NCBI GenBank assembly: GCA_963674965.2
Contig: CAXXFL010000006.1
Coordinates: 832,001 to 896,000 of the forward strand
Direction of reading: 5' to 3'
Source of the DNA: a bacterium
GTDB lineage: Bacteria > RBG-13-61-14 > DATKZS01
DNA length: 64,000 nt
The notes under the pieces are model-generated. The model did no database searches, was not told the origin of the DNA, and saw nothing but the letters and a program-made list of their open reading frames with translations. This document shows positions 42,861 through 64,000 of the stretch, piece by piece. How positions within the stretch are numbered: position 1 is the first letter of the stretch; each line of letters opens with the position of its first letter. The position numbers were made by a program, and so were the translations under genes.

Positions 42861-45111
42861 GGCGGCAATGGTTGCGACGCCCGATGAAGATGCCCGCGTA
42901 ATGCGCGTCCGGGAGGTTGAGGCCGGGCACGGGAGGGGATGGTCTTTCTTACCTCTTATCGGGAAGAAGCCTTGCCATAAAAAATGGTCCAAGGCTCAGC
43001 GGGAAACCCTGGACGAGGCGAGGGCATGGGCCAAGAGTGGAAATATCGGCTTACGCTGCGGCGCTGCATCTGGGGGCTTGGTCGTTTTGGATGTAGACCC
43101 CGGCGCGGACTTGACTACGCTACCTCAACTGCCGGAGACGGTTGAGGTAACGACTGGGCGCGGGCGCCACTATTATTTCTCATCCAACGGCTACAAGGTA
43201 GGAAACAGTGCCGGCAAGTTGGGACCTAACCTGGACATCCGGGGCGAAGGCGGCCAGGTGGTCTTCCCTGGCAGCATTCATCCTGAAACCGGCAATGTCT
43301 ATTGCTGGGCGGACGGCCGCTCTCCTGACCAGATCGAGCTCGCTCCGCTCCCGGCATGGATAGTAGAGAGGCTCGCTGCAAAACAGACCCGAAAACGAGC
43401 CTCGAAAACGACTGGCGCTTATGGACAAGCCGCGCTTGAAAGAGAGGCCGCTCGCGTCCGTGAGGCGCTGGAAGGCACGCGCAACGACACCCTGAATGAA
43501 GCATCGTACAACCTGGGCCAGCTTTTTGCCGGCGGCTTGTTGGAACGCGGCCTAATTATTAACGAACTGCTAGACGCCGCTCTCGCGGCCGGCCTCTCCG
43601 AACATGAGGCCAGGTCCACCATTGATAGTGGCCTCAAGGCCGGCGAGCAAAAACCTCGGAAGGCCCCTGCTAAAAAGGATAATCAGCCAGCCCCAGTCAA
43701 CTTTTCATCGCCCCCCTCCTCAATGGATCAGGGTATGGCCGTCGGCCAGACCAGGCCAAAGGCCTTTGCGTTAACCGATCTGGGCAATGCAGAGCGACTC
43801 GTCCAGAAGCATGGGGATAACATTCGCTACTCCTATGAGAAAAATCGCTGGCTCTTTTGGGATGGCTCCCGCTGGACTTGGGACCCGGGCGATAAAATTA
43901 TGCAAAGAGCAAAAGACGTTGCCCGCGGCATCTACGCTGAAGCGGAGTCGGAACCTGACTCGGATGCCCGAAAAAAAATTGCCGGTCATGCACGTACATC
44001 GGAGTCAAAGCATAGGTTAAAGGCATTGGCGTCATTGGCTAAATCCGAGCCTGGAATCCCGATCAAGCTGGATGCTCTGGACGCCGACCCTTGGCTCCTG
44101 AACGTAAATAACGGGACCCTTGCTTTGCGGTCTGGGGAACTCCGACCTCACGACCGGAGGGACATGCTCACTGGCTTATGTCCCGTCGCTTTCTATCCTT
44201 ATGCGGTCTGCCCGACCTGGGACGGCTTCTTGAATAAAATAATGGCCGGCAACGCTGACCTTGTAGCCTGGCTTCAGGAGGCGGTCGGTTATTCCATGAC
44301 CGGACTCACGGATGAACGGGTCATTTTCGTATGCCACGGCTCCGGCATGAACGGAAAAAGTATTTTCTTGAGCACGCTTGCTGAGATTATGGGCAACTAT
44401 GCTCAACGGGCCATAACCGAGACATTTTTTGTCTCAAAGCACGTTAACGGCGCGAGGAATGACATCGCCCGTCTCCGCGGCGCTCGCTTTGTCTATGCGT
44501 CAGAGTCGGAACAGGGGAGTCGGCTGGCCGAATCTCTTGTCAAGGATATTAGCGGTGGCGAGAAGATAGCGGCCCGCTTTCTCTACGGTGAGTACTTTGA
44601 CTTCATGCCCACCTTCAAACTTTGGCTTGGCACGAACCATAAACCCACCGTCAGGGGGACAGATCCCGCGATTTGGGACCGGATCAGATTAATCCCGTTC
44701 AATGTCCGCATCAAGGACAGCGAGAAAAAGCCCCGGCGCGAAATCATGGCGGCGCTGCAAAATGAATGGCCTGGCATCTTGGCCTGGGCCGCGCGGGGGT
44801 GTTTGAAATGGTACAGGCGTGGAGCGCTTCCCAACTGTCAGGAAATCACAGCGGCGGTTAGGGACTACCGCGACGACATGGACTTCCTGAAGGCTTTCAT
44901 CAAGGATCGATGCTTGACCGGTCCGGAGTTCCGGGAGTCCATCTCAAATCTATACGATGCCTTTAGAACTTGGGTGGACGCCTCTGGAGAGGTGGAGGCG
45001 CAAGTGTCGAAGCGCGAGTTTGGCGTCCGCCTATCCGAGCGGGGTTTCATTAAGGGAAGAACCGGCCAGAGTCGTTTTTGGAGTGGGATTAAGCTACGGG
45101 ATGACGCATGA
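42847..45111 (+). CDS. Bifunctional primase-polymerase fused to a P4/D5-type SF3 helicase
   Basis: NIGLRCG..VVLDVD..TGRGRHYYF..DIRGEGGQVVFPGSIH; LTDLGNAERL, LLNVNNGTL; Walker A GSGMNGKS; TNHKP..AIWDRIRLIPF. Confidence 0.93.
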   Translation: MRKNEAAMVATPDEDARVMRVREVEAGHGRGWSFLPLIGKKPCHKKWSKAQRETLDEARAWAKSGNIGLRCGAASGGLVVLDVDPGADLTTLPQLPETVEVTTGRGRHYYFSSNGYKVGNSAGKLGPNLDIRGEGGQVVFPGSIHPETGNVYCWADGRSPDQIELAPLPAWIVERLAAKQTRKRASKTTGAYGQAALEREAARVREALEGTRNDTLNEASYNLGQLFAGGLLERGLIINELLDAALAAGLSEHEARSTIDSGLKAGEQKPRKAPAKKDNQPAPVNFSSPPSSMDQGMAVGQTRPKAFALTDLGNAERLVQKHGDNIRYSYEKNRWLFWDGSRWTWDPGDKIMQRAKDVARGIYAEAESEPDSDARKKIAGHARTSESKHRLKALASLAKSEPGIPIKLDALDADPWLLNVNNGTLALRSGELRPHDRRDMLTGLCPVAFYPYAVCPTWDGFLNKIMAGNADLVAWLQEAVGYSMTGLTDERVIFVCHGSGMNGKSIFLSTLAEIMGNYAQRAITETFFVSKHVNGARNDIARLRGARFVYASESEQGSRLAESLVKDISGGEKIAARFLYGEYFDFMPTFKLWLGTNHKPTVRGTDPAIWDRIRLIPFNVRIKDSEKKPRREIMAALQNEWPGILAWAARGCLKWYRRGALPNCQEITAAVRDYRDDMDFLKAFIKDRCLTGPEFRESISNLYDAFRTWVDASGEVEAQVSKREFGVRLSERGFIKGRTGQSRFWSGIKLRDDA

Positions 45112-45203
45112 CACAAGTGACTTATTTTTTATAAACCTCTATAAGAAGAAAAATAGAGAGTAAAGTTTTATAGAAACAACGTCATCATGCGTCATACGTC
45201 ATC
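45100..45203. other. Putative replication origin of the element
   Basis: ATGACGCATGA (45101-45111) and its reverse complement TCATGCGTCAT (45185-45195), with extra TGAC/GTCA units, around an AT-rich core directly after the primase gene. Confidence 0.6.
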
Positions 45204-45317
45204 GGAAGGTCAAAGGCGCGCTAATAAACGGTTTTGACACAGCGAAGGGAGCCAAGCTCCTTGAGAATAATCTGAATTGGGTCCGCTCAACGACTGTTAA
45301 GTGCAGGAGGTTGTGTC

Positions 45318-45689
45318 ATGATGGAATCAGAGAAGGATGAAGGTCAAAGGGACCGTGTTCCGGCCGTGCTTGACGGACACGGGGAAGGTGGGGCAGGAAT
45401 GGCGGGTGGCCAAGATGGGACGAAGGCCGGGTCGGGTGAGGTGATATGCCTTGCGGGGCTGGACCCGGACGCGATCCTGGACGAGACGGCTCTGGCTGGC
45501 GCGCTGGGGGTATGCGTTCGGACCTTGCGGCGCATGGTGGTTAGGCACGAGTTGCCCCCGCCCTTTAAGGCGGCTGGACGTTCGAGGTGGTTCGCGGGCA
45601 GGGTCCTGGAGCACTTCAAACGGGCGGCGGAGCGCAAGGAAAAAGAGGCTGAACGGGCCGCCGCGAAAATTAGATCAATTTCTCCTTGA
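45318..45689 (+). CDS. AlpA-like HTH regulator
   Basis: LAGALGVCVRTLRRMV..ELPPPFK..RSRW; AGGAGG upstream. Confidence 0.75.
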   Translation: MMESEKDEGQRDRVPAVLDGHGEGGAGMAGGQDGTKAGSGEVICLAGLDPDAILDETALAGALGVCVRTLRRMVVRHELPPPFKAAGRSRWFAGRVLEHFKRAAERKEKEAERAAAKIRSISP

Positions 45690-45723
45690 TAAATGTATAT
45701 ACCTATGTCATGGTGTTGGCAAG

Positions 45724-45900
45724 ATGGCCAAGAAGGAAAGCAAGATGGGTCGCCCCTGGAAATCTCTTGAGAAGAGGTCCGAGATTGTGATCCTCCGCGT
45801 GACGCCCGGCGAGAAGCAGGTGCTCATCGAGGAATCGGATAAAAGCGGGGAAACCGTCTCCGAGGTTTTAATGCGCCCCTGGCGCAAGGAAGGAAGGTAG
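45724..45900 (+). CDS. Small ribbon-helix-helix-like DNA-binding protein
   Basis: MGRP..KRSEIVILRVTPGEKQVL..SGETVSEVL; ends 3 nt before the integrase ATG. Confidence 0.65.
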   Translation: MAKKESKMGRPWKSLEKRSEIVILRVTPGEKQVLIEESDKSGETVSEVLMRPWRKEGR

Positions 45901-45903
45901 TAC

Positions 45904-47157
45904 ATGGCAACGGTTTTTCGGACCTTCAAGTCCAAAAGGAACCCGGCGACCGGGAAGCGCGTCCCGGTCCTGGACGCCAAGGGACGTCCGATCCCGCATG
46001 AGCGCTGGCGATTCGAGTACACGGATTATCAGGGCAGGCGCCGGACCGCGAGCGGGTCCGCGTCTAAGGCACAGACAACGGCGCTGGCGGCGCGGGTCCA
46101 GGCGCGGGAGGACGAAATCAGACGCGGTTTCCGTCCGGCTCCCAAGCGCGAGGATGAGCACGCCCTCCGGCCTATTGAGAAGGTCATTGAGGAATACCTC
46201 GATTATGGCGCGGCCTGCGGAGGCCTGCGGGGGAAACCTTGGGGCCCGGTCCATCTCCGGCGCAAAGCCGCGACCCTCGAATGGTGGGTGGGAAAGCTCA
46301 ACTTGAAGGTGCTCGGGGACTTGAACGGCAACATCCTGGCGCGGGTCGAACAAATCCTCCGCGATTACCACCGAAAGGGCCGGACGGGGAAAACCTGCCG
46401 CAATCAAGCGGAAGCGTTAAGGAGTTTTTGCCGATGGTGCGTGAAACTGTCCTACCTGGGCCAGGATCCATTGCAGAGTCTTTCTCAATACGACGCCAGC
46501 CCGACCACTATCCGGCGGGCATTCACGCCGGAAGAATGCGAAAGACTCCTCCTGGCCGCTCCTCCCGACCGGAGACTGATATATGCCGTAGCGCTTGCCT
46601 CTGGCCTTAGGGCGAACGAGATTAGAAGCCTGCGGGTCATGGACCTCGACGTCGTTAACAAGGGGCTCCATCTTTCCGAGAACTGGACCAAGAACCGGAG
46701 GGGCGGCTTCCAACCTCTGCCCCTGGACCTGGTGGACCAGCTTGCCCAATCAGCGCGAGGCAAGGACGTTGCCGCGCCCCTTCTGTTTAATGCCTCACGG
46801 CGCGATTTTACGCGACTGATGGACGACGACCTAAAGGCGGCGGACATCAAGAAACGCGGGCCAGGCGGTGTGGTGTGTTTCCACTCACTTCGCCACAGCT
46901 TCATAAACATACTCTTGGAGCAGGGCGCCGGCGCCAAAGAGGTGCAGGACCTGGCGCGGCACCAGACGCTCAGTATGACCATGAACCACTACGCAAAGTC
47001 CAGCATGAAGCGAAAGCGAGAGTTAGCGGAAAAACTGGGGGAAACCATTAATATCCCGGAACTTCCCATAACCGGTCCGGAACGGAAAGTGGTGGGTCTT
47101 GAAACCCATGATTATCATGAAGGAATTCTGGCTCCCCGGAAGCAACTCTCTTCATAA
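45904..47157 (+). CDS. int: Tyrosine recombinase / integrase
   Basis: SGLRANE, TKN, FHSLRHSF, LARH..MTMNHY catalytic pattern. Confidence 0.93.
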   Translation: MATVFRTFKSKRNPATGKRVPVLDAKGRPIPHERWRFEYTDYQGRRRTASGSASKAQTTALAARVQAREDEIRRGFRPAPKREDEHALRPIEKVIEEYLDYGAACGGLRGKPWGPVHLRRKAATLEWWVGKLNLKVLGDLNGNILARVEQILRDYHRKGRTGKTCRNQAEALRSFCRWCVKLSYLGQDPLQSLSQYDASPTTIRRAFTPEECERLLLAAPPDRRLIYAVALASGLRANEIRSLRVMDLDVVNKGLHLSENWTKNRRGGFQPLPLDLVDQLAQSARGKDVAAPLLFNASRRDFTRLMDDDLKAADIKKRGPGGVVCFHSLRHSFINILLEQGAGAKEVQDLARHQTLSMTMNHYAKSSMKRKRELAEKLGETINIPELPITGPERKVVGLETHDYHEGILAPRKQLSS

Positions 47158-47350
47158 CGTTCTATTTTGGAGAAAATATCAAAAAATGTAGGCGCCGATG
47201 GGAGTTACACGCGAGTGGGGAAAGAAAGCCGGTGAGAAATAATTTAACGAAGGTTTCCCAACTAAAAGACTAATTGAAGGGGTAAAGGAAATGCCGGAGG
47301 TCCATTTCTCCAGGAAAGATTTCGGCGACTCCTTCGTAACTCGTGGCCGC

Positions 47351-47939
47351 GACCCATTATCGAAGCGCACCGTGTACGTCCCCGCGTCCAGCGCGCCCGC
47401 CACGGACAGCTTGAGAGTGTCGCCCTCCTCGAGCTCGTCGGACCAGGTGTCGCCGTCGCCGAGGGTCAGCTCGCCGATGGCGCTCTCGGCCAGGAGCCGT
47501 AGCCGCGCCGCGTCCAGCTCGGGCGTCGCCGAGTCCCCCTCTCCCGGCCCGCAGAGCACGGTCTCGCCGCTCATGACGGAGGTCACGCCGTCGCACAGCC
47601 CGTCGCCGTCGGTATCGGGATTCAGGGGATTGGTGTAGAAGTAGCCCGAGTTCAGGTATTCCTCGAGGTTGGTCCTCCCGTCGCCGTCGGGGTCATCGGC
47701 CGCGTCGTCCACCAGCGGGTCCAGCCCGGCCACGACCTCCCAATAATCGTCGATCCCGTCCCCGTCCGAGTCGGCCAACCTCGGGTCCGTCCCCAGCCTC
47801 GCCTCGATAATCGCCGCCATCCCGTCCCCGTCATAATCCGCCACCGCCTCATCGCACTCCACCACCACCGGATCGAACCCCAAGCTATCCGCATACTCCA
47901 CCTCCCACCAGTCCGTGAAGCCGTCAAAGTCGGAATCGG
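47351..47939 (-). pseudogene. Truncated duplicate of the pre-core region of the giant lipoprotein-Rhs gene (50594-51185)
   Basis: Near-identical DNA over [38 protein letters not shown], more diverged toward YTVRFDNGS; no core or toxin follows. Confidence 0.9.
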
Positions 47940-48734: not shown

Positions 48735-48813
48735 CCTTCTCGCTATGCTCGCCCATATAGCAGAGCTATATGGGTTACTTATATTTTATAACCCTTTTGT
48801 GGGTTACCTGTTG
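48731..48813 (+). repeat. Hairpin-containing dispersed repeat, copy B
   Basis: As copy A; lies between the integrase remnant and the convergent immunity gene. Confidence 0.88.
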
Positions 48814-48838
48814 GGTTACATCTAAAGCTACCCGCTTA

Positions 48839-49387
48839 CTATTTTTCTCGCGCTATTGGATTTCTCAAAACCTCTTCACAATTAGGGCATTTTACCATTG
48901 GATACCCAAGAGTGTCCTCCCATGACTCAGTACAGATCGGGCACATAACCCAATGATCTGCAAGAAGATTTGCAGGTGGTTTCGAATTGTCCAGATAGGC
49001 TAATTTCCTTATTTCCGCCCTTTGCATAAGAGTTCTCATAGGTTCTGGGTAGTCTTCTCCATCCCATATTCGTGAATAAGCCTCAGGGCTTTTAGAAATA
49101 ATTTCAGGCCCATAAATCACTCGTATATGATCATTAAAAACTTTACATACCCAATCATCAGGGATTGAAAAGTCGAAAATATCAAATAAGAATAGTGGCA
49201 ATGCACTTGCTATCGCTTCACCTACCAATAAAAGCACTTTACAAATACCATTATCATTAATTGTCAAGGCATGCACTTCATAATCATTGTCTTTCTTGAT
49301 TGGAAGAACTGTTTTCTTTGAGTTATGTGATACCATTAAGTACCAGTCAGAATTTTCGTAGTCAGTTATTTTTGCTCTTACAATCAT
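48839..49387 (-). CDS. Probable immunity protein with C-terminal zinc ribbon
   Basis: ATGA overlap with the toxin stop; AT-rich; [12 protein letters not shown]. Confidence 0.78.
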
Positions 49388-52300
49388 TTTTTCATACCTT
49401 TATCATCTACGATTTTAAAATCATCCATTTCAAGCGTATTTTCATTATATACGTAATGGACGTTAACGTCACCGTAAGGACTTTTATGTACATACTGGTA
49501 TTTTTTCCATCCATCTTTTGCATCCCATCTACCATCTCCCATTGGACATTCTTCTATCCAGTCTCCTTTTCCTGGATTGGCCATTACCTCATCAATAGCA
49601 AGTTTCTCCCTTAAATTTCTTGGCGCATATCTTCCTTTTGATGGATTGATAGTTGAACCGCGGCCAAGAGGACCTTTCGATACGCTTGTTTCTGCTGCAA
49701 CTTCACTTTCTGCGGCAAGGCCTTTCCCAGAAATAGATTTTGCGCCTTCCGCAAGCATATATACACCCAGGCAAGTTCGAATGGTGTAATAAGCCAGATA
49801 GTATGATTGTTCTTCTTCTGGAAGAGCCATAAAATCGTCATATATCTTATCATAGTTCTCTCCGATATAAATTGCTGACTCACCCATGTCGATAATATCC
49901 TCAATAATCACCCCTATTGCGCTTTGCGATCTGTTTGGATCTATAGAATCAAGGACACCTTTAGGTATATCAATAATGCTATCTCCAACGCCCCACATAG
50001 CCCAGCCAGTGTTTTTTGCAATTTGGACGGCAGCTTCATCCGATCCTGTTGGTCTAAGAGAGCTTTTCGAAGCCCAATCTGAATATCCAGGCTCTCCCGC
50101 TTGACCACTTGCATCATTATATACAAAAGGGTTGTTATAAGCGTACGCGTATTGATTAAAGAACCCCGGTACCGGATCCACGCTCACGAACCTCCCCAGG
50201 TCCGGGTCGTACCAGCGGGCGCCGAGTTGGTAGAGGCCGACGTCATTATCTTGTCGGCGGCCGACGAAGCCGTGGGTAATAGCGTCGTTATTAATGGTGA
50301 TGGGCCGGTAGGGAGAGCCGGCGAAGTCGCCTCCGAAGGGGAGGTAGGCGCGGCGCCAGACGGTCTCGCCGTCGGAGTTGGTGGCGACCACCGGGGAGTG
50401 GAGACCGTAGTGGAGGTAGAGGCGCTGGGTGAGGTTGACGGTGGTCGTGCCCGAGTCGAGGAGGCTCGCGCCCGAGTCGTCGGCAATGTCCACCCAAAAG
50501 ATGCTTGTTTCATCGTCCCAAAGGTCGCTTATGTCCACGATAACATAGGTCGCGCCCTCGGATACGGCTACTTCGATCTCGTGAACCGATCCCGAACCGT
50601 TATCGAACCGTACCGTATAAGTGCCCGCGTCCAGGCTTGAGGTCACGGCCAGCCGGAGCACCGTGTCTCCCTCCTCAAGCTCATCCGCCCAGGTGTCGCC
50701 GTAGCCCAGGGTTATTTCCCCGATCCCACTTTCGATCATAAGCCGTAGCCGCGCCGCGTCCCACTCGGAAGTTGTCGAGTCCCCCTCTCCCGGCCCGCAA
50801 AGCTGAGTCGCGCCGTCCATAACGGTAGTCACGCCGTCGCACAGCCCGTCGCCGTCGGTATCGGGATTCAGGGGATTGGTGTAGAAGTAGCCCGAGTTCA
50901 GGTACTCCTCGAGGTTGGTCCTCCCGTCGCCGTCGGGGTCATCGGCCGCGTCGTCCACCAGCGGGTCCAGCCCGGCCACGACCTCCCAATAATCGTCGAT
51001 CCCGTCCCCATCCGAGTCGGCCAACAGCGGGTCCGTCCCCAGCCTCGCCTCGATAATGGCCGCCATCCCGTCCCCGTCATAATCCACCACAGCCTCATTG
51101 CAATTTACCACCTCCGGGTCGAAGCCAAGGGTGTTGGAGTACTCGACCTCCCACCCGTCCGTGAAGCCGTCAAAGTCGGAATCGGGGGAGCGGGGATTCA
51201 AATCGGACATGCAAAATACATAGTTATAATACATGTCCTCAAATAACGGATTGCCAAGATATGGATTACACTCGACAATATCAGTGACTTGATCCCCATC
51301 GGAATCGGTTGTACTTAAATTGGCGGACATGGGATCGAGGCCGTACTCTAATTCCCAACCATCAGGCAAATCGTCCGTGTCGCTGTCCATAAGTTCAGGA
51401 TAGGTGCCTAGGGCGTAAAGCTCCAGTCCATCTGAGAGGCCGTCCCCGTCGGTATCGTCCCAGTCAAGATGCATTGAAACCCACCAAGGGTTGTCGGCAA
51501 GATCGTAAAAAGGGCTTATGTAATAGTATTCTGTGAAATCATCGACGTAATCCTCATCTGTGTCGGGTTTGAATGGGTCACTAAAATAAGAATCCAATAT
51601 CCAACACTCTTGCATATTAGTCACTCCATCCCCGTCAGAGTCCTGCAATGTGTCCGAGACTAATATATTGGTTCCATAGTGATACTCAAAATAGTCATTA
51701 CAGGAATCCCCATCAAAGTCCCATGCGTCAGGTTCAGTTCCGAGTATATATGAAGTTCTTGCCTCCAAGATGCCATTATTGAGAACTTTATACGAATCAC
51801 CTTTCGTTGGATCCAGTTCAGGGTAGTAAAGTACCTCCCAGCCGTCCGGCATTCCGTCCCCGTCGGTGTCGGGGTTGGTAAAACTTGAGGAGTAAGTAGA
51901 ATACTCAACTAGATTGCTGAGACCGTCCTGGTCGAGGTCAGTGTACGCGTCGGAGGAGTCGTTCGGGTCAAGGCCAAATAGAGCCTCGTCATAGTCATCT
52001 ATCCCATCGCCGTCCGAGTCCACCGTTGTATCGGAGGCGTCCACGTAGAGTTCCTCGATATATAGCAGTTCGTCTTCATCCTGGTCCGCGAAATAGGATG
52101 GATTACCATAAGCCTCGGCCACGTTCATAAGCGAGTACTTAACGTGGTACACGTCGGTTGGGTCTTTTTCCACCCACATGACATGGAGATACTTTCTATT
52201 GGGACTGGCTTTAATCCTTGCCAGAATGGCCTGGTTTTCAGGGTTGGATATAAGGATCGGCGGTCGCCAAGTGGTGGAATCCAGCGGTAAGTCTTTGTAA

Positions 52301-55300
52301 TAATGGGTTTTTACTTCTTCGTTTGAGTAGAGAATGACCGACCTTGTCTGACCCGAACCCACGGGAGTTTCGACCACGGCTTTCCATACCGCGTGGTACC
52401 TCTCTCCAATTGTCTCGTCCACGAAGGCGACGGGCTTTTCCGTTTGTTTTACATAGTCCGGGAAATGGGAGATACTTTGCAACTCGATGCTATCCCAATC
52501 CTCAAGTTCATCGCCGTATCCATCCATTATGTCGTACTTGACCGTCCATCCATCTAACTCGCCCGTAAACGTAAATCCAGGCTGATGATTGTAGGCCAGA
52601 TATGGGCCAATCAGAGAATTCAAGTAATAATCTAATATCTTATATTTTCTAATCCAAGTTTGATCTCCCAATGATAAGTACATACTACAAGTTGAAGGGC
52701 CGCTAAGTTCCCATTCCAACCCCAGAGGGTAGGTATCTATTTTATCGACGGAATTATATTCAGAGCGCAAAGACCCCCATTCAACGTATGGATATGTTGA
52801 AGTATAGCTACTTTCAGGGAAATAATAATCATACGATATTTTTGAAGGGTCTGCGGCGTTGTTCCTTTTGGCCGCGAAAAGGAAATTACCCGTGAAACTG
52901 CCATAACCGGTGGTGTCCGACTCGCTCGCCAAGGCGGGGGCGAACATATCATCGAAGTCCCAGCATACTGGGATTATAGTAATCGTATCAGCATCATACA
53001 GGCAGACGCTGACTTTATTGGTGTCTCCCGCCGTTACGAAAGGCAAAGCGAAGAGATAGTCTTGGTCATTAATGTCCGAGGCGGCCATGAAATCGCCAGG
53101 CGACAGAACCCATTCGGCGATAGCCTCCCCCCTTTGATATTGGCCGCTGACCATGACGCTGTTTCCCTTAACGATCATCGTTTTATTGATCCACTGGGTA
53201 TTTCCATTTTCATAAGCGTAAAACAAGCTGACCAGGGTCGTCTCGCTTGGCGCTATGTCCGCTAAAAACGCTTCGTTTACCGTGCTACCAACGGTGAATT
53301 CGACGGACATTTGGGGATAGGTCAAGCCGGATAAGGTATAGTAGTCGTCACTGGGATCGGAGACGCTGTTCCCGATATTAATCTCCACTCCGTCGGGGTC
53401 TCCTCCTCCGTCCGTGTCGAAGTTGACGGGACTGGTGAACGTTACATAAAGTTCTTGATAGTCGGATAATCCGTCGTGATCCGTGTCGGCCAGAGTGGGG
53501 TTGAGGTCGCAGGCCGTGGCTCCTCCAATGCACACGTTAATATAAGGGTGGTAGGCGGTGCTTCCATCGAAGGAGGTATCGCCGTCAAAGGAAATTTCCT
53601 GTAGGTCGGTAAGGCCGTCTCCGTCGGTGTCGTTGGAACTGGGGTTGGTACCGAACCTGTACTCCCAGATATTGGAGATGGAGTCCGAGTCGGGGTCGGC
53701 GGTCAGGTCATCGTCCACCGTGGGATGTAGGTACATAAGTTCCCAATAGTCCCCAAGGAAGTCTCCGTCTGAGTCGCTCGAGAGTGGATCGAGGGCGTTG
53801 GCGTCGTCGCAAGTGCCGCCGCAAGTCTGATAAGGCTCAAGGAATAATGCGCAACATTCCTCAATATTAGTAATGCCATCGCCGTCAGAGTCAACTTCGG
53901 CGTCTTTCACCAGGGGATCGAGACCGACGGAGACCTCCCAATTGTCATCCATCCCATCATGGTCCGTATCCTTGTGATAGGGGTTGGTCCCGGCCAGGTA
54001 CTCGCCCAAGGTGTTCAGGCCGTCCGAGTCGAAATCCTGGAGCGTGTCGCTGGTGATGGGTCCCGTGTTCCATATGCGCTCCCATCCATCGGGGAGCAGG
54101 TCGCCGTCGGTGTCAACTCTGCATGGGCTGGTCTCGGTATTGCCGTCAAGAGCGCCGTCCTGGTCCATATCCTCAAGGCCGTCGGGAATGCCGTCTCCGT
54201 CAGAGTCCTGATTGCCGGGAGAGATCGTGCATCCAATTCCGACGGTAAAGCCATATAGCGCCTGGGTTTCAAGGTAATCTCTGATTCCGTCGATATCGGA
54301 GTCCGCGCTTCTGGGATTAATGGAGAGTTCGTATTCCTGGAGGTTGGTCAGGGTATCGCCGTCAAGGTCGCCCGTCGAGTCGTCAATCGTGGGGTCCAGG
54401 CCATAAAGGATTTCCCAGTCGTCCGGCATGCCGTCGGAATCGCTGTCCGTGGCGCCAGGCAGCGTCCCATGAAGGTACTCTGTCCGATCGCTCAATCCGT
54501 CCTGGTCAGCGTCCGCCGCGCATGAATTAAGGACGAGGATACTCAAGTTATTCGTTAATTCCCATCCATCGGGGAGACCGTCTCCATCGGTATCCATATT
54601 ATAGGGATCGGACTCCGTAGCGTCCACGACGTAATTGCCATTTACGTCCTCCCCGGTGGACCCGTCGTTTAAAATGCCGTCTCCATCCATGTCGTTAAAC
54701 ACGTATATGGGCGGCTTGCCTTCATTAATCAGTTCCTGCTCGTCATCGACGCTATTGCCGTTTTTATCGCTTGTTCCGTTGGGATTCGTCATATAGAAAT
54801 ATTCGTCGCCGTCGTTATACCCGTCGTCGTCCGAGTCGTCATCTTGCGGGTCCGTGCCGAGGAGTAATTCCTCATAATCGTTCAGTCCGTCACCGTCCTC
54901 GTCGGCGAGACAAGGGTCGGTCTCGCCCGCGTCCTCTTCTACTCCGTCGGGTATGCCGTCACCGTCGGTGTCGGGGTTGGCCGGGTCGAGACAACCGCTG
55001 GACTGGGTCTCGAAGTAGTCCGAAAGATTATCATCGTCCGTGTCCTGCTCGATCGGGCTACAACGGTAATTCATAATGATCGCGCCGGTCATTTCGATTT
55101 CGTACCCATCATTAAGTCCGTCCTCGTCCGAGTCAGCGACGTTTGGGTTGGTATAGACCTTTAAGGTATGGCCGTCACTAGGGCACCCGGCGAGAGCGTC
55201 GCATGAGGCCCCCTTGTAGAGCAGGAACTCCTGGAGGTTGGTGAGGCCGTCGGAGTCCCAGTCCGTGTCCCCGTCCTGGACATGGGGATTCAGGCCCCAG

Positions 55301-58300
55301 AAGACCTCCCACCCGTCGTCCATGCCGTCGCCGTCGGTATCTGCCAGACATGGGTTGGTCTCCGTATCACCGTCAAGGACGCCGTCAAGGTCTATATCCT
55401 CGAGTCCATCGGGAATGCCGTCGCCGTCACTGTCGGGATTCGTGGGCACGATGGTGCAACCCATTCCGACCGTCAGGCCGTAGATGGCCGTGGTTTCCTG
55501 ATAATCGCTCAGTCCGTCGGCGTCCGTGTCGGTGGAATTAGGAGAAGTCCCCAGCGTTACTTCAACGCTGTCTATAAGGGAGTCTCCGTCGGAATTGGAA
55601 GTCGCGTCTCCCGGATCGGTGCCCAGTGCAAGTTCTTCCAGGTCGGACACGCCATCTTCGTCGCTGTCGGCAACGTAAGGATTAGTGCCGTTTTGCGCCT
55701 CGTATAGATTGTCCACTCCGTCGCCATCCGGATCGGCTATCGTGGCGCTGGACAATATAGTCAAAGCATCGAAGGGGTCCAGGGGATCAAGAGAGTATTG
55801 TCTCTCATAAGCGTCATTCATTCCGTCGCTGTCGCTGTCTGCCCGGCAGGGGTTGGTTTCTCCCTCATCAACCTCGAAATCGAGGTCGGCGTCCTCGCCG
55901 TTGGAGCACAATAAAGTGGAACCGTCATAAACGGAGGTGTTTCCATCGCATAATCCGTCTCCATCGGAGTCGGGATCGCTCGGAGATGTGCAATAGTCAT
56001 ATTCAGCCGCGTCGCCCAATGCATCGCCATCAGTGTCAACAAGCGTGGGGTCGGTGTTGGCCGTCATTATTTCGACGTAGTCCGATAACGAATCGCCATC
56101 CGTGTCCGTTAGTAGAGGGTTCGAACCGAAATCGACCTCTACACCATCAGAGAGATCGTCTCCATCCGTGTCTTCCTTGCAGGGATCAGTCTCGCCCGCG
56201 TCAACTTCCCCGTCATTATCCTGGTCCTCGCCCATGGTCCGACCGTCTATTAAGCCGTCATCATCCGAGTCGTCGTCGATAGGGCTTGTGCAGTAGCCGA
56301 TTTCCACGTCATCGTCCAGTCCATCGCCATCTGAATCCGCCAGCTGGGGATTCGTGTAGTTGTCCTCCTCGCTGGAGTTGATAACTCCGTCCCCGTCCGG
56401 GTCCTCGAGGTCGTCCGTGATGGAATTACTATCGCTGTCCGCGATGTAAGGGTCATATCCGTATTCGATCTCCCAAGCGTCGCTAAGTCCGTCGGAGTCC
56501 GAGTCGTCGTCGGCGGTGAAGATGAAATCTATTGCGTCCACGCCGGGGCTGCCGGCGGTGGATGAATGCACGGTAATCCGATGCCTTTTACGAGGCAACA
56601 GGACCTCTGTCCGATAATTAGTAGAGTTCTGGGAATTGAACTCGTCGATCAAGTCCTCCCAAGAGATGGTGAAACTCTTCTCCAGGCCCTTGTAATGAAA
56701 TAGATAGACGTCAAGGTCCGAATTCGTGTCGCCTGGAAGCAATTGCTCCTCGCTGGAAAAGAGTATCCATTCGTTTTCCTCGTCCATGGAGACGAGAGGC
56801 GGAGCGTCGCCGGCAGAGGCGATAACGGGTTCGGTCGTGATCGCGTAGCCCCACGCGTTATAGGTCCTGTCGTCGGCGTATCTCGTGGGTTGGAGGAGGA
56901 AGTAGTTATATCCGGACGTGACCGTGTCTCCCGAAAAATTATGATTGGAAAGGACCAGAACGTCGATATTGCCGTTACCGTCAGGCAAGGATACACCGGC
57001 GGGGATAACCGTAACGCCGGGAGAGGCGTTGGTTATCTGTTCAATCTCGTTATAGACGGCGGTGTCGCCGCTGAGCCTCCTATAAACGAAAAGCTCGGTG
57101 GAGACAGAGTCTCCATCATTGGAAAATCCGTCTATTCCGCCGTAATTCCCGTTGGAACTGAAGTAAATCGACTGTAATGAATCGTCGGCAATAACTGGAT
57201 AATCGTTGGTCACGGTGGACCCGGAATCAGTGACTTGGTGAACGCCCACTCCGTATTCCCCATAGTAGAAAATTTCATAGTTGTAGTCCGAGTTGCCGAC
57301 CGACGCGTCCCAGTCCTCGGCGGAAACGAACGCCACGTATTCGCCGTTGGTAGTCGAGGACAAGCGTGGATTAATTCCTTGCTGATGCAAAGTAGTGCCC
57401 TGGACGATATTTACACAGCCAATGGGGTATGGCCCTCCGACGTCACTGTAAGTACATCTGAGGAGTTCATAATGATCGAGCGTGTCGCCGGCTGAAGAGT
57501 TTTCCGTCCAAAAGAAGAAAATATTTTCATAGGAAAGAACGGCGTCATAATTTGGCTCGCCCCTGGTGTCCCCGAAAAGATCGCTGGTAGTGACCTGAAA
57601 CAGGCCCTCGCTCTCGTCCCAAAAATACAATTCTCCATCAGTGGACGTTTCACCGTCCTCAAGGTCCTGGCGAGACCAGAACACGGCCTGATCACCCGCG
57701 TTGTTGGGTGAAATACTATGGCTGGCGAGCGCCTGAGCGTCGTCGCGGCCCACGGTAAACGAGGTCAGCGCGTCCGTGGAATATCCGTCAACCGTCAGGT
57801 CGGTCCGGTAGACCTGAAAGACATTGTCGGTGGTCCCGTCCTGCGCCCAATAGAACATGTATTGGCCATTCCTCGACATGGCGGGAGCGAGGACCGTTGA
57901 CGAAAACAAGGGCATGGAAAGACTGGAAAGAGGCTTAAGCTCGTCGGTTATTTCCACGCCCATCTCGGAGCCGATCAAGTCGGTCCAGTGGTCCATGGTT
58001 ATGCGGACCTCGTCCACGTCCGGCGTGGCCCTCACGGTCAAGTAGCTCTCCGAGTACGCCGCTTTATGATAGGAATATGTAACTGGTTCGTCGATAACGA
58101 CCGGTCCGACGCGCCCTTTTACTTCATAGACCTTAACGTATGTGGGATGATCACTGTAAAAGCCGGCGTGGAAAACGTCCCGCTCGACGACGTCTTCCTC
58201 AAGTATTTGGAAGGTCGAGTCCGAGGGAAGAACGATGGCCTTGCCAAACGCGTTGATTGGGGGAGGAGAAACAAGAAGGACGTCCGATAACTCTCCGTCC

Positions 58301-59244
58301 ATTGAAATGGTCGCTCCCGAGCCTGGACCATAGGTAACGTCGTAATAGTTCTGAGGACGAGAGTAAATCCAAAAATGGTACTCGATATCGAGAGGCATTC
58401 CCGAGGAAGCGCCGATCTCGATTTTTCTGTTATTTCTGACTATTACGCTGGGATTGCCGATTGAAGGGCCGTCAAACGGGGCATGGAGATCGTCGTCGTG
58501 CCAGAAAACCTCATAGGGAATATAAGACAGGTTGAGAACAGGCTCGGAACTTCCAAGAGTAAACGTCGAGTGAGGAGGCATGGGCATGTATAAAAGGGAG
58601 TCGCCGGAAAGCCCCGAGCCGCTCGCCGGATAAACGTGGCTCAAAGTGGGATGTTTCGCGTTATTCGCGAAGTCGCGCACGATGAAATAATTGATTACGT
58701 CGCCGCTTGATTGATTCTCTTCCGAGTCATGGAATATCTTATCAATTACCAGTTTATACGCGAACGCTCCTTCATAATCGTCCATTCCGTGCCACAGCGT
58801 GTCATCGTCAACGAGGCCCACGTAGAGCTTGTCGCTATAGCCGGACTCGCACTCGGTCGTGGACGCCCAAATAGTACCGGTGAAATAAGCGCCGCTGGAA
58901 AGGGAGTCCCATGACTTTGTAAAGCAATAATCGAAGTTAAAGACGGATTGACTGGGAGTGAGGTAAGAATCGAAATTTGTAACGGTCTGCCCGTAAAGCT
59001 CAAGATCAGACAAGGTCACCGTGTCGTCGTCAACGCACCTGTCGAAAAACACCACGAGTCTATGCTGGTTGTCCTCCATGGACGGGTCCAGGATTTCCAC
59101 GTTCTTGCCGAGAGACATTACCTCCGTGTAAGCCGGGCCAAGTCCCTTGACAAAGCTGTTCTGATTGGCTCCACAGCCTACAATTACCGCCGCTAGAAAA
59201 AATATGACGAAGATCGCCGCCGCTTTCATTACCTTTAACTTCAT
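49384..59244 (-). CDS. Giant lipoprotein (~3,286 aa): TolB-like propeller, dozens of DxDGDG(L/M/I)xDxxE putative Ca-binding repeats, isolated Rhs core, C-terminal toxin
   Basis: AAGGAG before ATG 59244; [24 protein letters not shown] lipobox-like; [22 protein letters not shown]; core [40 protein letters not shown]-rich tip [25 protein letters not shown]. Confidence 0.9.
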
Positions 59245-59267
59245 GGCTTCGCTCCTTGTTTCCTTGC

Positions 59268-60083
59268 CTACTTGCATATCGATCGCTCGGCGTTCTCGGG
59301 ATCGAGAATCAAGAGGTGCTCGTTTAGCGACTCGAATAACTCCCTGGGGATACACTCCGATGAGACCGAAGAGGAAAGGGAGCGCCTGGTCGGAATGGTG
59401 GACTCGGCTAGCGCCTTCTCGACCGGAGAGACTAACGTCTCGCCCGTTAGCTTTTCAAGGGCCTCGGAAGCCGCCGTCTGGACAAGGAGCGACGCGTCGG
59501 TCTTCATGGCTAACTCAAGGGGGGACTTGAACTCGATGTAGCCGCTCGCCCCCAGTGAGCGCGCGGCCGAGGCTCGGACCACCGCGCTCTTATCGCGAAA
59601 TAGGGCCTTGCGGAGAGGCTCGAGGGAGGCAACAGCCGCCGCTCGGTCTTCCTCGGCCTTGCTTAGTTCGGCCAAGGCCGCCGCCGCCAGGGTCCTTGTG
59701 GCCAGGTCATGATTATTATCTCCACCTTCGAAAATATCGGTGAGCGAATCAATGGATTCATTAGCCTCAGCCTTGTTTTTGGAAGAGGCGAGTCCGCGTA
59801 TTTTCGCCCGCAGATTGGTTTCTCCAACGGGGGAGCGTTGTATGCCCTTCCTCGGCTCTTTGCGCTCGGTTGCGGTATTGGCGGGGACAGCCCGTTCTTT
59901 CACCGATGAGGATGAAGCTTGTTTTCCTGAAACTGCCGCGCCGGCGTCGCCGTCCGAGCCGGTCCTATCCATTCCTTGGCCGCAGCCCATGGAGGCCGCT
60001 ATGAATATTGAAAATAGAAACGCCAACGCGAGGCCAGTGGCTTTGTTAATAGTGATCCAGTTCCAGCAAGATAACCTTTTCAT
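59268..60083 (-). CDS. HEAT-repeat lipoprotein
   Basis: [56 protein letters not shown]. Confidence 0.85.
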
Positions 60084-60106
60084 TTTATCCTCCTCTCCTT
60101 CTTCGA

Positions 60107-63100
60107 CTAAAACTGGGCCACCATCTGGCCGTTGGCGTATACGTACAACTTGCGGCTGATCAGCCGGAAGTCGCTAAGTCGGAAGGTCTTCTCGCATAGC
60201 ATTCGACCGCCTGGATCGTAGAAGTAGACAGTCGCCTCCTCCTCGGTCACCTTCAGGAATTTGTTTCCACCGGCGGTGTAATAGATTTTGACCTTGCCGT
60301 CGTCGGCGTCAACCAGCCGGTCGAAAAGATCGAAGCCGTACTTGTGCGTGGGCGTCTGGATAACGTTTCCACGAGAGTCGTGTACGTAATCTCCGATGGT
60401 TGGACCGTCAGTGGATGTATCACCGGCCTCCACAGAGGAGAGACGATTGAGATTGTCGTAGTAGTAATGATAGGACTCTGATGATCCCGGGTCCCATGTC
60501 AAGTCCTTAGATTCTCGATTACCTCTACGATCAAAACCATAGGCAACGTGCAAAAATGGCTCTACTGTAGTATTTCCAGCAAAATAAGACACATCGGAAA
60601 GATGCTGTTCCTTGTCGTAAGAGGCGTTAATTTTTAAAGCGGGTGCGCCATAAGGACCGATTTTAGCATTAAGCGGATTTAGGTAATTGTCGAAATTCAA
60701 GAAGGTGCCGTTGAAATAATTATAGCCGTATTGTTCTCTCCAATATGCGTATGCACCCGCTGGATTTATCAACATAATATCATTTGCAACGTCACTCCTG
60801 TCGGGAGACTGGGCTAAAGTGCGAATGTCTATCTGTGTTATAACGCCAAGGCCGTACAACTGATAAATGTCAGTTACCACGTCGTTTCCATAGCTAAGTC
60901 GCTTCAACGAGCCGTCAGGCTGATACTCTATGGCATCCATTATGTCATCGGAGCCGCTCTTAGCTATCGAGACCACCCTGCCTAGAAGGTCGCGAGTAAG
61001 GGTAATGGTCATGTCGCCGTCATAGTCCGACGACGTTATCTCGCCGTATTCGTTATAATCGTATTTAATATCGAAGTCGGCGTAATTAACTCCCATGGAA
61101 GTGGGGATTGTATAATGTATTGAAACCTCGTCAAGAAGAGGGGCCGAGTTGTTGTAATCGTAATCAATATCGTAGGAAACCTGGTTCCAGTCTCCCTCCT
61201 CCTTGGTCAGGCTGCCCGATCCCGAGTGATAGGTAAACTTGTAAAGAGGCTGATTGACGCCAACGGCCTGGATTTGCGTCACCCGATCGGCTCGGTCATA
61301 AGTCATGTTAACCACCGCGTTGTCCGAGGCCCTGATCGACGTTATCCGGCCTCTAGAGTCGCGCGTGAACCTCCTCTGGCCGGACTCGGGACTGTATGTG
61401 CCGATAACGTTTCCCTTGGCGTCGTAAGTGAATTCACGGTCCCCAATGCCGGCCCCGCTCTCCTCGGATATGGAAAGAAGCTCGCCCTTTGAGCCATAGT
61501 TATATTTAAACTTGCGAGGAGTAGGCCCGCCGCTCACGATCGGACCCTCGCGTTCCGTCATGTATAGTTCTCCCGGACTCGGACCCTTATAGATTTCCTT
61601 ATAACTGGTGGCGTAGGTTTCATGCTTACAAAGATACGAGCCGGAAACGCAGTCCACTGTAATATCGACTTCCAAACCGGAACTACCCGCCGCTCCATAC
61701 TCGTACGTTACGTACCTGCCGAACTTGCCCGATTCTCCAGTCTGGTCCGTTGAAAAAGCCGGTCTGCCAAAGGCGTCGTGGGCGCTGATGGATAGCGCTC
61801 CAATTGGATAGCTGTTATCGTCAATGTTTTCCGAGGTCACGGGCGAAAAAATATTCCTGGGCGCGCCGCATAAATCGCGCTCAACAAATTGCGCGAGAGT
61901 GTAGCCGTCGTCCGTTTCAACCTCGGTTTTCCAAGTCCTCCCCCAACCGTCGAGGTATTCGGTTAGCTCGCGACCGCCCGTAACGCTCTTTCGTTGTTTG
62001 GCGTAATAAAAATGATTGAGGTTGCCTTGGGAAGGGCCGTCAGTTGTGCTCGTGCCGGCCAAATAAGTTATCTCCGTGTCCTCGATATCACCGGGACGGA
62101 TAATGGACTTGAGACGACCAACGTTGTCATAAACGTATTGATATGAGAGCTCGTCGCCGCCGGCGTTAGGCACCGTTATTTGGGTCGCCTGTCCTAAAGC
62201 GTTATACGTCAAATCACCCGTCAAAGCTTCATCATAAAGCTTCACGGTCTGGGGGCGACCATTAACATAATCCTCGTACGCGTTTTTTACCGAGTCGTCG
62301 CCCGTGGCGTTGGTTACGTTTCCACCTGAGTCGTACTCCAGGCTTAGAGCGCTCATGTCAACCACTGAGGCCTGGAGGAGGCCATTAGTCATGTCCGTTC
62401 TGTACGTTCCAAGGTTGCCCGCGCCGCCGTTCAGGCTGGAGTCCGCGTTAGTCGTCACGCCGATCATGTAGGTGTCCCCGCTTACCTGGGCCTCGTGACT
62501 GAACTTGTAATTGCTCGTCCTCGAATAGCCCCCTCCTCCATCCATATATGACAAGACTTTCCCGGGGGAGTTATATATATTGAAATCGCTCGCCTCCATG
62601 TGATAGGTAACGCCGTCGCGAATAATTTGCACGCTGGAAATGGCCGGAATCGTGGGAGTCGGATCGATAAAATGTCGAGATAAGCCGCCAACGTCCCTGT
62701 CATAATAGACGTGGTAAGGAGTTGAAGAGCTCGAATTGTCGGATATCAACCGGATGCCATGCAAAAAGGGAGAGGGCAGACCAATCCAATTATATTCCAC
62801 GTCACTCAATGAAAAACTATCGCCACCGTCTCGAACGCCAAAAGTCTTTAATGCTTTAAGAAGATGCACGCGCCAAATCGAGCCGTTCTCGTTTATAGAG
62901 GGAGTGTCATAGTAATAATATTCCTTTTTCACGGAATGGAAGTGATTTTTTATATCCGTTTCGCCAGGCACGTAATCGGCGAAACATCGCAATATATGAG
63001 GATCATCGCCGTCCATCAGCTTGTCGATTTCTATCGTGGTCTTCAAGGTGCCCGCCTGATCTCCCGTGCCAACCCTCTTCATCGCGCTGAAAGCGTCAAA

Positions 63101-64000
63101 CCTGGCCCTTGCATAGGTCTCTGTCCCGGTTCTTATATAATTGGTTTCATATCGTTGATACGCGGAATTCCAGATTTCTATAGTGGGAAAATAACTGTTC
63201 CCATATAAAATCTGCGGATCATATTCAACCACGGTGTAGCTATAGGATACGTCGGCGCTCCATGGGGAGACAATTCGCTTCACGTCGCCTATATAACAAC
63301 TAATAACCACATCGCCTCCCAAGCATTGTTCATCAGAAAAACAGTATTCAATTTGCCGGTCTCCACAATATGAGACGCAATCGCAATATCCATTATCTCC
63401 AACTCCATAGAACGTGGCGGGCTCGAAATGCCAATGATCAGAAACTATATCGGGATCAAGATCGGTTGGAATACTGTTGCCGAATTCAACGACGGCCGCC
63501 TGGTCCAAAACGAAAGTGTCCACTAGTTGATAGTCGCTGGGGCCAACGTGGTGCAACGGGACATCGTTATCATAAAGAGGAGTATAAAATGATTCAGGCA
63601 CCACGTGGTAAATATAATAACGGCTGTAAAGAAGCGTTTCGTTTTGGCTGACCTCAAGCCTTTTAAGCTTTCCCGCCGGCCGGTTGGTCTTACGACACAC
63701 CAGGGTGTTTCCGTTCATGCATTCTATATTATTATATTGCGATATCTGGCTTGACACGTCCTCGTATTTGAAGTCGACTTTATAAATGGTATTGCCCGCT
63801 CCCTCGAGAGTCACTTTTTCAGGCATATTATAGAAACCGTAAATCGCCTCTTTATCCTCCTCAAGGTAATCTATGGTAACTTTAGAACCGTTTGGATAGT
63901 CGACCTCAACAAGCTTTAGCCTTACAGGTTCCCACGGCGGTGGAATATGACCCGACGTAAGCTTGTACGTCTTCTTGGTTCCATCAGGAAGGAAAAGGCG
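60107..64000 (-). CDS. YD/Rhs-repeat shell protein lacking the Rhs core (5' end beyond window)
   Basis: The frame stays open upstream of 63826 to the window edge (RLFLPDGTKKTY...). Repeats YNALGQ, YDNVGRL, YDAKGNV..SPESG, YYYDNLNRL, FDLFDRL; ends YFYDPGGRML..KLYVYANGQMVAQF*. Confidence 0.9.
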   Translation of the reverse strand, partial: RLFLPDGTKKTYKLTSGHIPPPWEPVRLKLVEVDYPNGSKVTIDYLEEDKEAIYGFYNMPEKVTLEGAGNTIYKVDFKYEDVSSQISQYNNIECMNGNTLVCRKTNRPAGKLKRLEVSQNETLLYSRYYIYHVVPESFYTPLYDNDVPLHHVGPSDYQLVDTFVLDQAAVVEFGNSIPTDLDPDIVSDHWHFEPATFYGVGDNGYCDCVSYCGDRQIEYCFSDEQCLGGDVVISCYIGDVKRIVSPWSADVSYSYTVVEYDPQILYGNSYFPTIEIWNSAYQRYETNYIRTGTETYARARFDAFSAMKRVGTGDQAGTLKTTIEIDKLMDGDDPHILRCFADYVPGETDIKNHFHSVKKEYYYYDTPSINENGSIWRVHLLKALKTFGVRDGGDSFSLSDVEYNWIGLPSPFLHGIRLISDNSSSSTPYHVYYDRDVGGLSRHFIDPTPTIPAISSVQIIRDGVTYHMEASDFNIYNSPGKVLSYMDGGGGYSRTSNYKFSHEAQVSGDTYMIGVTTNADSSLNGGAGNLGTYRTDMTNGLLQASVVDMSALSLEYDSGGNVTNATGDDSVKNAYEDYVNGRPQTVKLYDEALTGDLTYNALGQATQITVPNAGGDELSYQYVYDNVGRLKSIIRPGDIEDTEITYLAGTSTTDGPSQGNLNHFYYAKQRKSVTGGRELTEYLDGWGRTWKTEVETDDGYTLAQFVERDLCGAPRNIFSPVTSENIDDNSYPIGALSISAHDAFGRPAFSTDQTGESGKFGRYVTYEYGAAGSSGLEVDITVDCVSGSYLCKHETYATSYKEIYKGPSPGELYMTEREGPIVSGGPTPRKFKYNYGSKGELLSISEESGAGIGDREFTYDAKGNVIGTYSPESGQRRFTRDSRGRITSIRASDNAVVNMTYDRADRVTQIQAVGVNQPLYKFTYHSGSGSLTKEEGDWNQVSYDIDYDYNNSAPLLDEVSIHYTIPTSMGVNYADFDIKYDYNEYGEITSSDYDGDMTITLTRDLLGRVVSIAKSGSDDIMDAIEYQPDGSLKRLSYGNDVVTDIYQLYGLGVITQIDIRTLAQSPDRSDVANDIMLINPAGAYAYWREQYGYNYFNGTFLNFDNYLNPLNAKIGPYGAPALKINASYDKEQHLSDVSYFAGNTTVEPFLHVAYGFDRRGNRESKDLTWDPGSSESYHYYYDNLNRLSSVEAGDTSTDGPTIGDYVHDSRGNVIQTPTHKYGFDLFDRLVDADDGKVKIYYTAGGNKFLKVTEEEATVYFYDPGGRMLCEKTFRLSDFRLISRKLYVYANGQMVAQF

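Follow-up and report, generated by a model that had tools for sequence, protein, structure and literature searches.

A four-gene operon with an Rhs-type shell gene lacking its core and a giant TSP3-repeat lipoprotein gene carrying the core and a toxin

The operon and the position of the break

The DNA analysed here, referred to below as the window, is a stretch of 64,000 nucleotides from a bacterial genome (G000:C6:832001-896000, where G000 denotes the source genome). On its minus strand, between 48839 and 64000, four tightly spaced genes lie head to tail and encode a YD-repeat protein, a HEAT-repeat lipoprotein, a giant lipoprotein and an immunity candidate; going by their sequence, they are a co-transcribable unit. 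The YD-repeat protein and a piece near the C-terminus of the giant are, as placed by alignment, adjoining and non-overlapping parts of one Rhs protein, which meet within ~4 residues. On balance, we lean towards regarding this operon as a lineage-specific polymorphic toxin system of the Rhs type that would do without a type VI secretion system (T6SS), and in which the Rhs would be divided over two polypeptides of one operon.

The first gene, encoding the coreless YD shell, enters the window with its 3' 3.9 kb (60107..64000; like the other operon features below, on the minus strand). Its open reading frame (ORF) extends past the window to G000:C6:896681 (full gene, G000:C6:892107-896681; ~1,524 aa), and its probable start lies behind GGAGG and encodes the Sec-type signal peptide MKLKYASVKVILMAALAVVVIPSAKVMA. 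The gene ends in ..KLYVYANGQMVAQF* with the TAG at 60107-60109, exactly as stated in an earlier note on this DNA. There follows the gene for a probable HEAT-repeat lipoprotein of 271 aa (59268..60083; HEAT_2 at E = 1.1e-11 in Pfam; lipobox-like motif ..AASMGC), whose ATG lies 23 nt past the YD stop with the ribosome-binding site AAGGAGAGGAGG ahead of it. The giant gene (49384..59244) encodes 3,286 aa from its probable start, an ATG at 59244, which lies 21 nt past the HEAT stop and is preceded by AAGGAG, these two motifs being the good ribosome-binding sites that had been reported. The longest frame of the giant begins at GTG 59355, and residue numbers given here follow this 3,323-aa frame and not the 3,286-aa protein. 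Finally, the immunity candidate (48839..49387; 182 aa, with a C-terminal CxxC..CxxC zinc ribbon) overlaps the giant's TGA with its ATG (ATGA), in line with the overlapping immunity gene described before. The operon junctions suggest translational coupling.

The giant (protein P0005) is indeed, as the earlier note held, a lipoprotein of ~3,290 aa without YD repeats: it carries a signal peptide with the lipobox IVGC (Cys61; 59173..59244, from reading the sequence) and gives no RHS_repeat match at E <= 0.01 (Pfam). Its 44 D.D.D[GNS] motifs are gathered in two blocks of thrombospondin type 3 (TSP3)-like Ca-binding repeats, one at aa 949-1990 (53386..56511; 33 motifs) and one at aa 2446-2889 (50689..52020; 11 motifs). 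TSP3_bac, found in 7 stretches (E = 1.1e-17), is the sole Pfam family there, and the non-repeat parts gave no Pfam family at E <= 0.5 except stray TSP3 matches and one chance match. The repeat-free middle region between the blocks (aa ~1991-2445; 52021..53385) belongs to no known family according to Pfam and motif counts; its residues 2001-2300 show 27-43% identity between paralogs and are the most divergent part of the giant outside the toxin. Such a variable middle region would suit target binding. Two candidate memberships were rejected, namely CglD (313.6 bits, below the NCBIfam equivalog cut-off of 400) and MtsD (153.6 bits, below the cut-off of 800), both matching the repeat stretches only.

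Behind the second block, the giant continues with a pre-core domain (aa ~2890-2977; 50425..50688), which occupies the place of the YD repeats in a canonical Rhs, followed by the Rhs C-terminal conserved piece with the core (aa 2978-3084; 50104..50424) and a polymorphic C-terminal toxin region of 239 aa without known family (49387..50103), where the GC content goes down to 0.38. The conserved piece starts at R2978, which is window position 50424 exactly, the place where the switch had been put. The Rhs-associated core family TIGR03696 matches aa 3006-3085 with 55.5 bits (cut-off 32.5). The piece reads VSVD(3060)P ... NNPFVYND(3081)ASG, so that both catalytic Asp residues, D3060 and D3081, are kept 21 residues apart in a cleavage-type motif P-x4-D-x-x-G, the Pro of DPxG being replaced to give DASG instead. 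In an AlphaFold2 (AF2) model of the 584-aa cassette, with a mean predicted local distance difference test score (pLDDT) of 34, only the pre-core domain reached 55-71, as a small beta-sandwich. The giant is thus a TSP3-repeat lipoprotein bearing a polymorphic toxin next to an immunity gene, as previously described.

In the YD protein, one clear match was obtained with RHS_repeat (E = 2.5e-9; Pfam) and TIGR01643 (E = 7.5e-7; NCBIfam), while the NCBIfam scan gave no match to the TIGR03696 core, ahead of which the protein ends. The hidden Markov model (HMM) scan proposed in the earlier note accordingly finds RHS_repeat in the YD protein and TIGR03696 in the giant. An AF2 model of YD residues 369-1568 was poor in its front part and good over the last ~470 residues (pLDDT 70-94). 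When this model was searched with Foldseek, Rhs cages came out on top (Tse15, S. bongori Rhs and Tse5), followed by teneurins and TcB-TcC (E ~1e-24 to 1e-13), and VIA re-alignment to the cages gave Z scores of 13-18. As far as the model goes, the YD protein is an Rhs cage without plug. Stray matches aside, its N-terminal region shows no Pfam family at E <= 0.5, and the N-terminal cleavage motif P[VIL]xxxxGE is absent from the YD proteins.

The window itself provides an internal ruler for the position of the break, a canonical contiguous Rhs of 2,900 aa (17626-26328, minus strand) composed of a transglutaminase core, Big_7, a CHU_C-like domain, DUF6531, 24 RHS_repeat stretches, PT-TG and an EndoU toxin. 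YD residues 1473-1537 align to its residues 2490-2561 with a score of 68 (200 shuffles, 34+-5.6; maximum 56), and the 31 leftover YD residues reach canonical position ~2592; giant residues 2980-3084 align to canonical 2596-2700 with 38% identity and a score of 132 (shuffles, 36+-5.5). By eye, the canonical ..LVNYTFGDDLISQ|GRQEVSYLHYDGLGST.. matches the YD end quoted above together with the giant's conserved start. In the VIA alignments, the last residue of the YD model pairs with residue 1243 of Tse15, 1235 of RhsA, 1311 of S. bongori Rhs, 567 of 668 of YenC and 541 of 660 of TccC2. This is well before the cleavage sites of RhsA, cut after W1350 according to PMC8765631, and of Tse15, for which the title of the PDB entry gives the cleavage Asp as 1369 and 1391; hence the YD protein lacks ~100-150 plug residues, and the giant contributes 107 (R2978-G3084). 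The earlier view of the two pieces as complementary Rhs halves is borne out by this analysis, in which the break is placed to ~4 residues on the canonical Rhs and agrees with the solved cages.

Paralogous loci and toxin cassettes

The order coreless YD gene, HEAT gene and giant gene with core was found by tblastn and ORF maps at three of three loci of the genome, that of this window (locus A), C6:748616-763775 (locus B) and C2:63536-80060 (locus C), and this threefold recurrence excludes chance. These three loci also hold the sole long (>900 aa) YD frames without core in the genome, each beside a giant. Three short YD-only frames (466, 201 and 250 aa; C6:474-479k and C5:173k) look like fragments. 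The claim that all frames are intact holds for loci A and B but not for locus C, where an insertion sequence (IS; 338-aa transposase, G000:C2:65284-66710) splits the YD gene into frames of 582 aa and 892 aa and leaves HEAT and giant intact.

Using the Nei-Gojobori method, dN/dS of the YD pairs was 0.176 (A-B), 0.192 (A-C) and 0.174 (B-C), at dS values of 0.8-1.7 that are near saturation for A-B; the A-B values were 0.27 for HEAT and 0.20 for the giant. These low ratios indicate that the coreless cage genes were kept by selection since the loci diverged, and three paralogous operons with such ratios (0.17-0.19 for the coreless YD genes) support the earlier argument against simple decay. The last ~120 YD residues are among the best conserved when the proteins are compared in 50-residue blocks (82-100% identity), and the last 14 residues are identical in the three YD proteins. 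The first ~1,000 aa of giants A and C are 100% identical (window 56300-59244; G000:C2:70251-73250), while the YD genes of the same two loci are only ~75% identical and their toxins differ, a pattern that, in terms of sequence, points to mosaic gene conversion between loci.

The HEAT protein is kept in all three loci (72% and 98% identity). A second HEAT protein of 280 aa, unrelated in sequence, is encoded in the window (13874-14716, minus strand) directly upstream of a 7,101-aa giant ORF (1-13800, minus strand, running on to G000:C6:824495), which has CARDB repeats and no Rhs core. HEAT proteins and giants may be paired repeatedly in this genome, and since the second HEAT protein precedes a core-free giant, that of the operon may be a general helper of giant proteins as much as a cage chaperone.

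Across the genome, TIGR03696 gave 32 matches, 17 of which form a subfamily with the cassette type of the giant: the 3 giants themselves and 14 orphans, 5 located after locus B and 9 after locus C. These 17 cassettes are near-identical through TSP3 tail (the last ~150 aa of the second TSP3 block), pre-core and core up to NNPFxYxDxxG; past DxxG they diverge abruptly into 11 toxin types, as defined by 5-mer sharing, with toxin regions of 217-247 aa. A Pfam scan of the 17 gave TSP3_bac (10), PT-TG (2), HNH (1) and colicin/pyocin DNase (Col-Pyo_DNase; 1), and RHS_repeat in none at E <= 0.001. The catalytic Asp pair is kept in 15/17, as well as in all four metagenome homologs described below. Because the cassettes repeat TSP3 tail, pre-core and core without YD repeats, the recombining unit, as read from the sequences, is the stalk tip and not the cage gene. 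The reverse holds at the locus of the canonical Rhs (locus D), whose orphan (15070-16785, minus strand) has three YD repeats ahead of its core. Of the 15 remaining cores of the genome, 8 share their open frame with a YD match and 7 lie in short frames of 233-402 aa.

The 239-aa toxin region of the giant gave nothing in Pfam at E <= 0.1 and designed repeat proteins only in a PDB sequence search (E of at least 0.016); in the ESM Atlas, MafB-like polymorphic toxin clusters appeared at 0.92 with few shared features, which we treat as a lead only. For the immunity candidate, there were weak zinc-ribbon hints only. Downstream of the operon, a truncated orphan cassette of 240 aa (47179..47901, minus strand) consists of TSP3 tail and pre-core start followed by unrelated sequence. 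A Prim-Pol/D5-type primase-helicase of 754 aa and a 417-aa tyrosine integrase adjoin this cassette, the whole stretch spanning 42847-47901. An identical 240-aa truncated cassette lies at the end of locus B (G000:C6:733182-733904), where its neighbour is a different recombinase, which suggests a shared insertion or a duplicated end. Further remnants of the constant region (TSP3 tail, pre-core and part of the core) are present outside the three loci, at G000:C1:910798-912221 and C1:1464719-1464907.

Occurrence in other genomes

A word-index search with pre-core plus core over 5.8 billion proteins returned, among proteins of 1,827-5,816 aa, the giant itself and 32 others. YD-type Pfam domains are carried by 31 of these 32, the remaining one (P0027) having a weak DUF6443 only. 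The C-terminal half of the YD protein retrieved itself and its paralog from locus B, the next best hit being at 25% identity. The giant paralogs of loci B and C were not returned, although the YD paralog of locus B was; the protein collection is therefore incomplete for the source genome, which limits results of the 'only itself' kind, such as that for giant aa 60-1000, which within the same size range found the protein itself only.

A HMMER search over 1.84 billion representatives gave 13 matches at E <= 1e-30, namely the giant itself, eight proteins equal in length to cassettes of the source genome (their identity being inferred from length) and four singletons from metagenomes (P0083-P0086, with 45-55% identity, on ENA or JGI contigs of 1.4-11.4 kb). 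The four singletons share the pre-core, the H.G[LI](H/G)(S/G)P strand and D[AR][SN]G, with a TSP3 tail in addition in P0086, and contain no RHS_repeat. In a scan of JGI metagenomes, 68 of the 75 core-bearing frames at the 80 loci kept had DPxG and 7 had another residue (S, G, T or A); none of the 75 had the H.GLHSP signature or a match into the pre-core. The earlier note had proposed that an arrangement unique to this assembly would speak against its reading. The layout is repeated inside the genome and the fusion occurs in four metagenome proteins, but none of the genomes searched, other than the source genome, contained the full operon.

The phylum has 13 species genomes in the collection searched, of which the source genome (6.5 Mb) is the largest, and TSP3-containing open frames 2,000-8,000 aa in length are numerous in the source genome and several relatives. 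A literature search, with supplements outside its scope, found no description of an Rhs shell/core split or of a TSP3-Rhs core fusion, and the accessible part of Zhang et al. 2012 mentions neither thrombospondin nor a TSP3-core fusion. The layout seems undescribed so far.

Comparison with known toxin systems

With the T6SS Rhs effectors (RhsA of Pseudomonas protegens, Tse15 of Acinetobacter and the Salmonella bongori Rhs), the operon shares the YD cocoon fold (Foldseek E 2e-24; VIA Z 16-18), the conserved C-terminal piece with two Asp 21 residues apart, and the variable toxin with adjacent immunity gene and orphan cassettes. It differs from them in that shell and plug/toxin are separate polypeptides encoded 9.7 kb apart, that DASG stands where the effectors have DPxG, that the orphans have TSP3 tail and pre-core instead of YD repeats, and that Sec and lipoprotein signals take the place of T6SS loading; by its sequence, the shell-core contiguity that defines a canonical single-chain Rhs is lacking at all three loci. 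Unlike the T6SS effectors, the operon proteins contain no PAAR, VgrG, prePAAR or DUF6531 (Pfam). No PAAR or VgrG gene is present in the window, as had been noted; elsewhere, the genome has a single PAAR match, three matches to VgrG, and TssC. Delivery by the T6SS was considered and rejected on account of the Sec signal on the YD protein and the lipobox on the giant.

In the TcB-TcC pair of Tc/ABC toxins, an Rhs cocoon comes from two separately encoded proteins, as would be the case here. In Tc, it is the shell that is divided, one half of it staying on TcC together with the core, whereas the core-bearing chain here is without any YD repeat. The toxin of TcB-TcC is enclosed and cut by an aspartyl protease, as described in PMC8765631. 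None of SpvB (PF03534), TcdB_mid (PF12256), beta-propeller matches or a TcA partner was found in the four operon proteins.

CdiA combines a stalk, a variable middle and an exchangeable toxin tip with an immunity gene and orphan toxin-immunity cassettes. The giant resembles it in its very long repeat stalk, variable middle, exchangeable C-terminal toxin behind a short conserved motif, immunity gene and orphan arrays, and departs from it in having a lipid anchor and not a TpsB partner, an Rhs core and not VENN, and a separate cage gene. Pfam detected no TPS domain, FHA repeats or VENN/pre-toxin domain, whether in the whole giant (E <= 0.01) or in segments of it (E <= 0.5).

WapA joins shell and core on a single chain, in contrast to the two chains found here, and the source organism has T6SS genes and is for this reason presumably diderm. 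WapA and other Gram-positive Rhs toxins are Sec-exported and use no T6SS, according to PMC12704120. A tie between polymorphic toxin and lipoprotein is also known for MafB of Neisseria, with its conserved upstream lipoprotein MafA (PMC3482391), and for the SitA toxins of myxobacteria, which are lipoproteins themselves (PMC5562445); these have neither an Rhs part nor a giant stalk, and the likeness noted here is one of description rather than of sequence.

Proposed mechanism and alternative explanations

In the mechanism that we propose, the YD protein and the giant would both cross the inner membrane, as follows from the Sec signal of the one and the lipobox of the other. The first would be a Sec-exported YD shell without C-terminal plug and protease; the second, a lipid-anchored, Ca-binding TSP3 giant whose tip would comprise the beta-sandwich, the Rhs plug/aspartyl-protease piece and an exchangeable toxin of ~230 aa. 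After export, the plug piece would enter the open C-terminal mouth of the shell and the toxin would be enclosed in trans; the two conserved Asp would release it by cleavage behind D-x-x-G, and the stalk would present the loaded cage outside the cell for contact-dependent delivery. The HEAT lipoprotein may aid the giant in export, anchoring or assembly, and the product of the fourth gene would be the immunity protein. As the core is nearly invariant, one shell gene could serve any cassette. From the sequence evidence, we think it somewhat probable that plug-toxin and shell assemble in trans in this way. That the system amounts to a new mode of contact-dependent delivery, with a Ca-stiffened lipoprotein stalk bearing an Rhs warhead, the cage supplied in trans by a secreted protein, and one shell loading a dozen interchangeable cassettes, is put forward more tentatively and strikes us as possible rather than probable.

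Several observations weigh against assembly in trans. The ~600 N-terminal residues of the YD protein have no known fold and could have a role of their own, and the core modelled alone reached a pLDDT of ~25, a value obtained from a shallow alignment that says little either way. DPxG is replaced by D[AGSDN]xG in 17/17 cassettes, and self-cleavage is thus predicted only. TcB-TcC, to our knowledge the one two-chain cocoon described so far, has its split within the shell and not at the plug. Moreover, the N-terminus of the plug must exit the cage to join the stalk, and both the YD protein and the giant would need a route through the outer membrane. With respect to distribution, the coreless YD partner gene is known from the source genome alone and not for the four metagenome homologs; in 40 relatives, no pre-core plus core match lay outside the source genome among the matches listed; among the 13 genomes of the phylum, pre-core and YD family each occurred in 1/13, the source genome; and a scan of 185,579 species genomes with TSP3-tail motifs found neither a fusion nor YD or HEAT homologs in the best 80 of 594 stretches.

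Some of these points would equally suit two independent parts, the core of the giant cleaving itself alone to release the toxin and the YD protein having a separate role as an adhesin or empty cage, like a teneurin scaffold, co-expressed for the same surface structure. The four metagenome proteins, with pre-core, core and toxin and no shell on the same protein, fit this explanation, as does the large extra N-terminal region of the YD protein, which belongs to no known family, and teneurin shells without cargo are described in PMC8765631. We nevertheless judge it rather unlikely, considering that the YD protein ends exactly at the boundary of the conserved C-terminal piece, that the sole long coreless YD frames adjoin giants, and that an open plugless cage has, as far as is generally known, no function. 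According to the same source, that piece seals and belongs to the cage in every solved case (PMC8765631).

An evolutionary leftover is another explanation, and a distinctly improbable one: a rearrangement would have put a core-toxin cassette on a neighbouring giant adhesin and truncated the Rhs, the YD remnants being kept by gene conversion. The loci certainly contain many IS elements, integrases and recombinases, an IS interrupts the YD gene of locus C, the 100% identity of giants A and C over their first ~1,000 aa is evidence of recent conversion, and the layout of locus D (Rhs, orphan, HEAT, giant) is a plausible ancestor. However, remnants of this kind are hard to reconcile with dN/dS of 0.17-0.19 at dS 0.8-1.7, two of three YD frames intact, the same last 14 residues in all three proteins, and preserved operon spacing and ribosome-binding sites. 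As for an assembly or annotation artefact, in which a contiguous Rhs would have been wrongly broken or a chimeric join made, the constant region is repeated ~20 times and thus hard for assemblers, and short-read contigs break there. Still, every one of the 30 bins of 48800-64000 is covered by short-read contigs that come from two runs on a single sample; none of these contigs joins 60.1 kb to 50.4 kb, and one of 1,453 bases runs without a single difference from 48800 to 50209, through the immunity gene and toxin into the core. This sample may be the assembly's own source and is then not independent, for which reason the stronger argument lies in the same junctions at three loci on two contigs, differing in sequence (60-75% protein identity), and we regard the chance of an artefact as minute.

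Other genes in the window

Between 27120 and 40622 on the minus strand, the window encodes a DUF499 protein (924 aa), an rve-type transposase, an SNF2/helicase with NOV_C (1,134 aa) and ORFs without family; this cluster may be a defence-type island.

Significance

How cages of the Rhs, Tc and teneurin type are loaded, and whether a pre-made shell can be closed by its plug, is an open structural question, which the presence of shell and plug on separate chains would make testable by mixing. If assembly in trans is true, the operon would demonstrate from nature that a free plug can close and load an Rhs cage post-translationally, and a separable cage and plug could serve as a protein container. 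It would also explain the design of the orphan cassettes, in which recombination takes place onto the stalk gene and the cage gene remains constant, and the known carriers of Rhs toxins, so far T6SS spikes, Tc injectors and the wall proteins of Gram-positive bacteria, would come to include a lipid-anchored repeat stalk.

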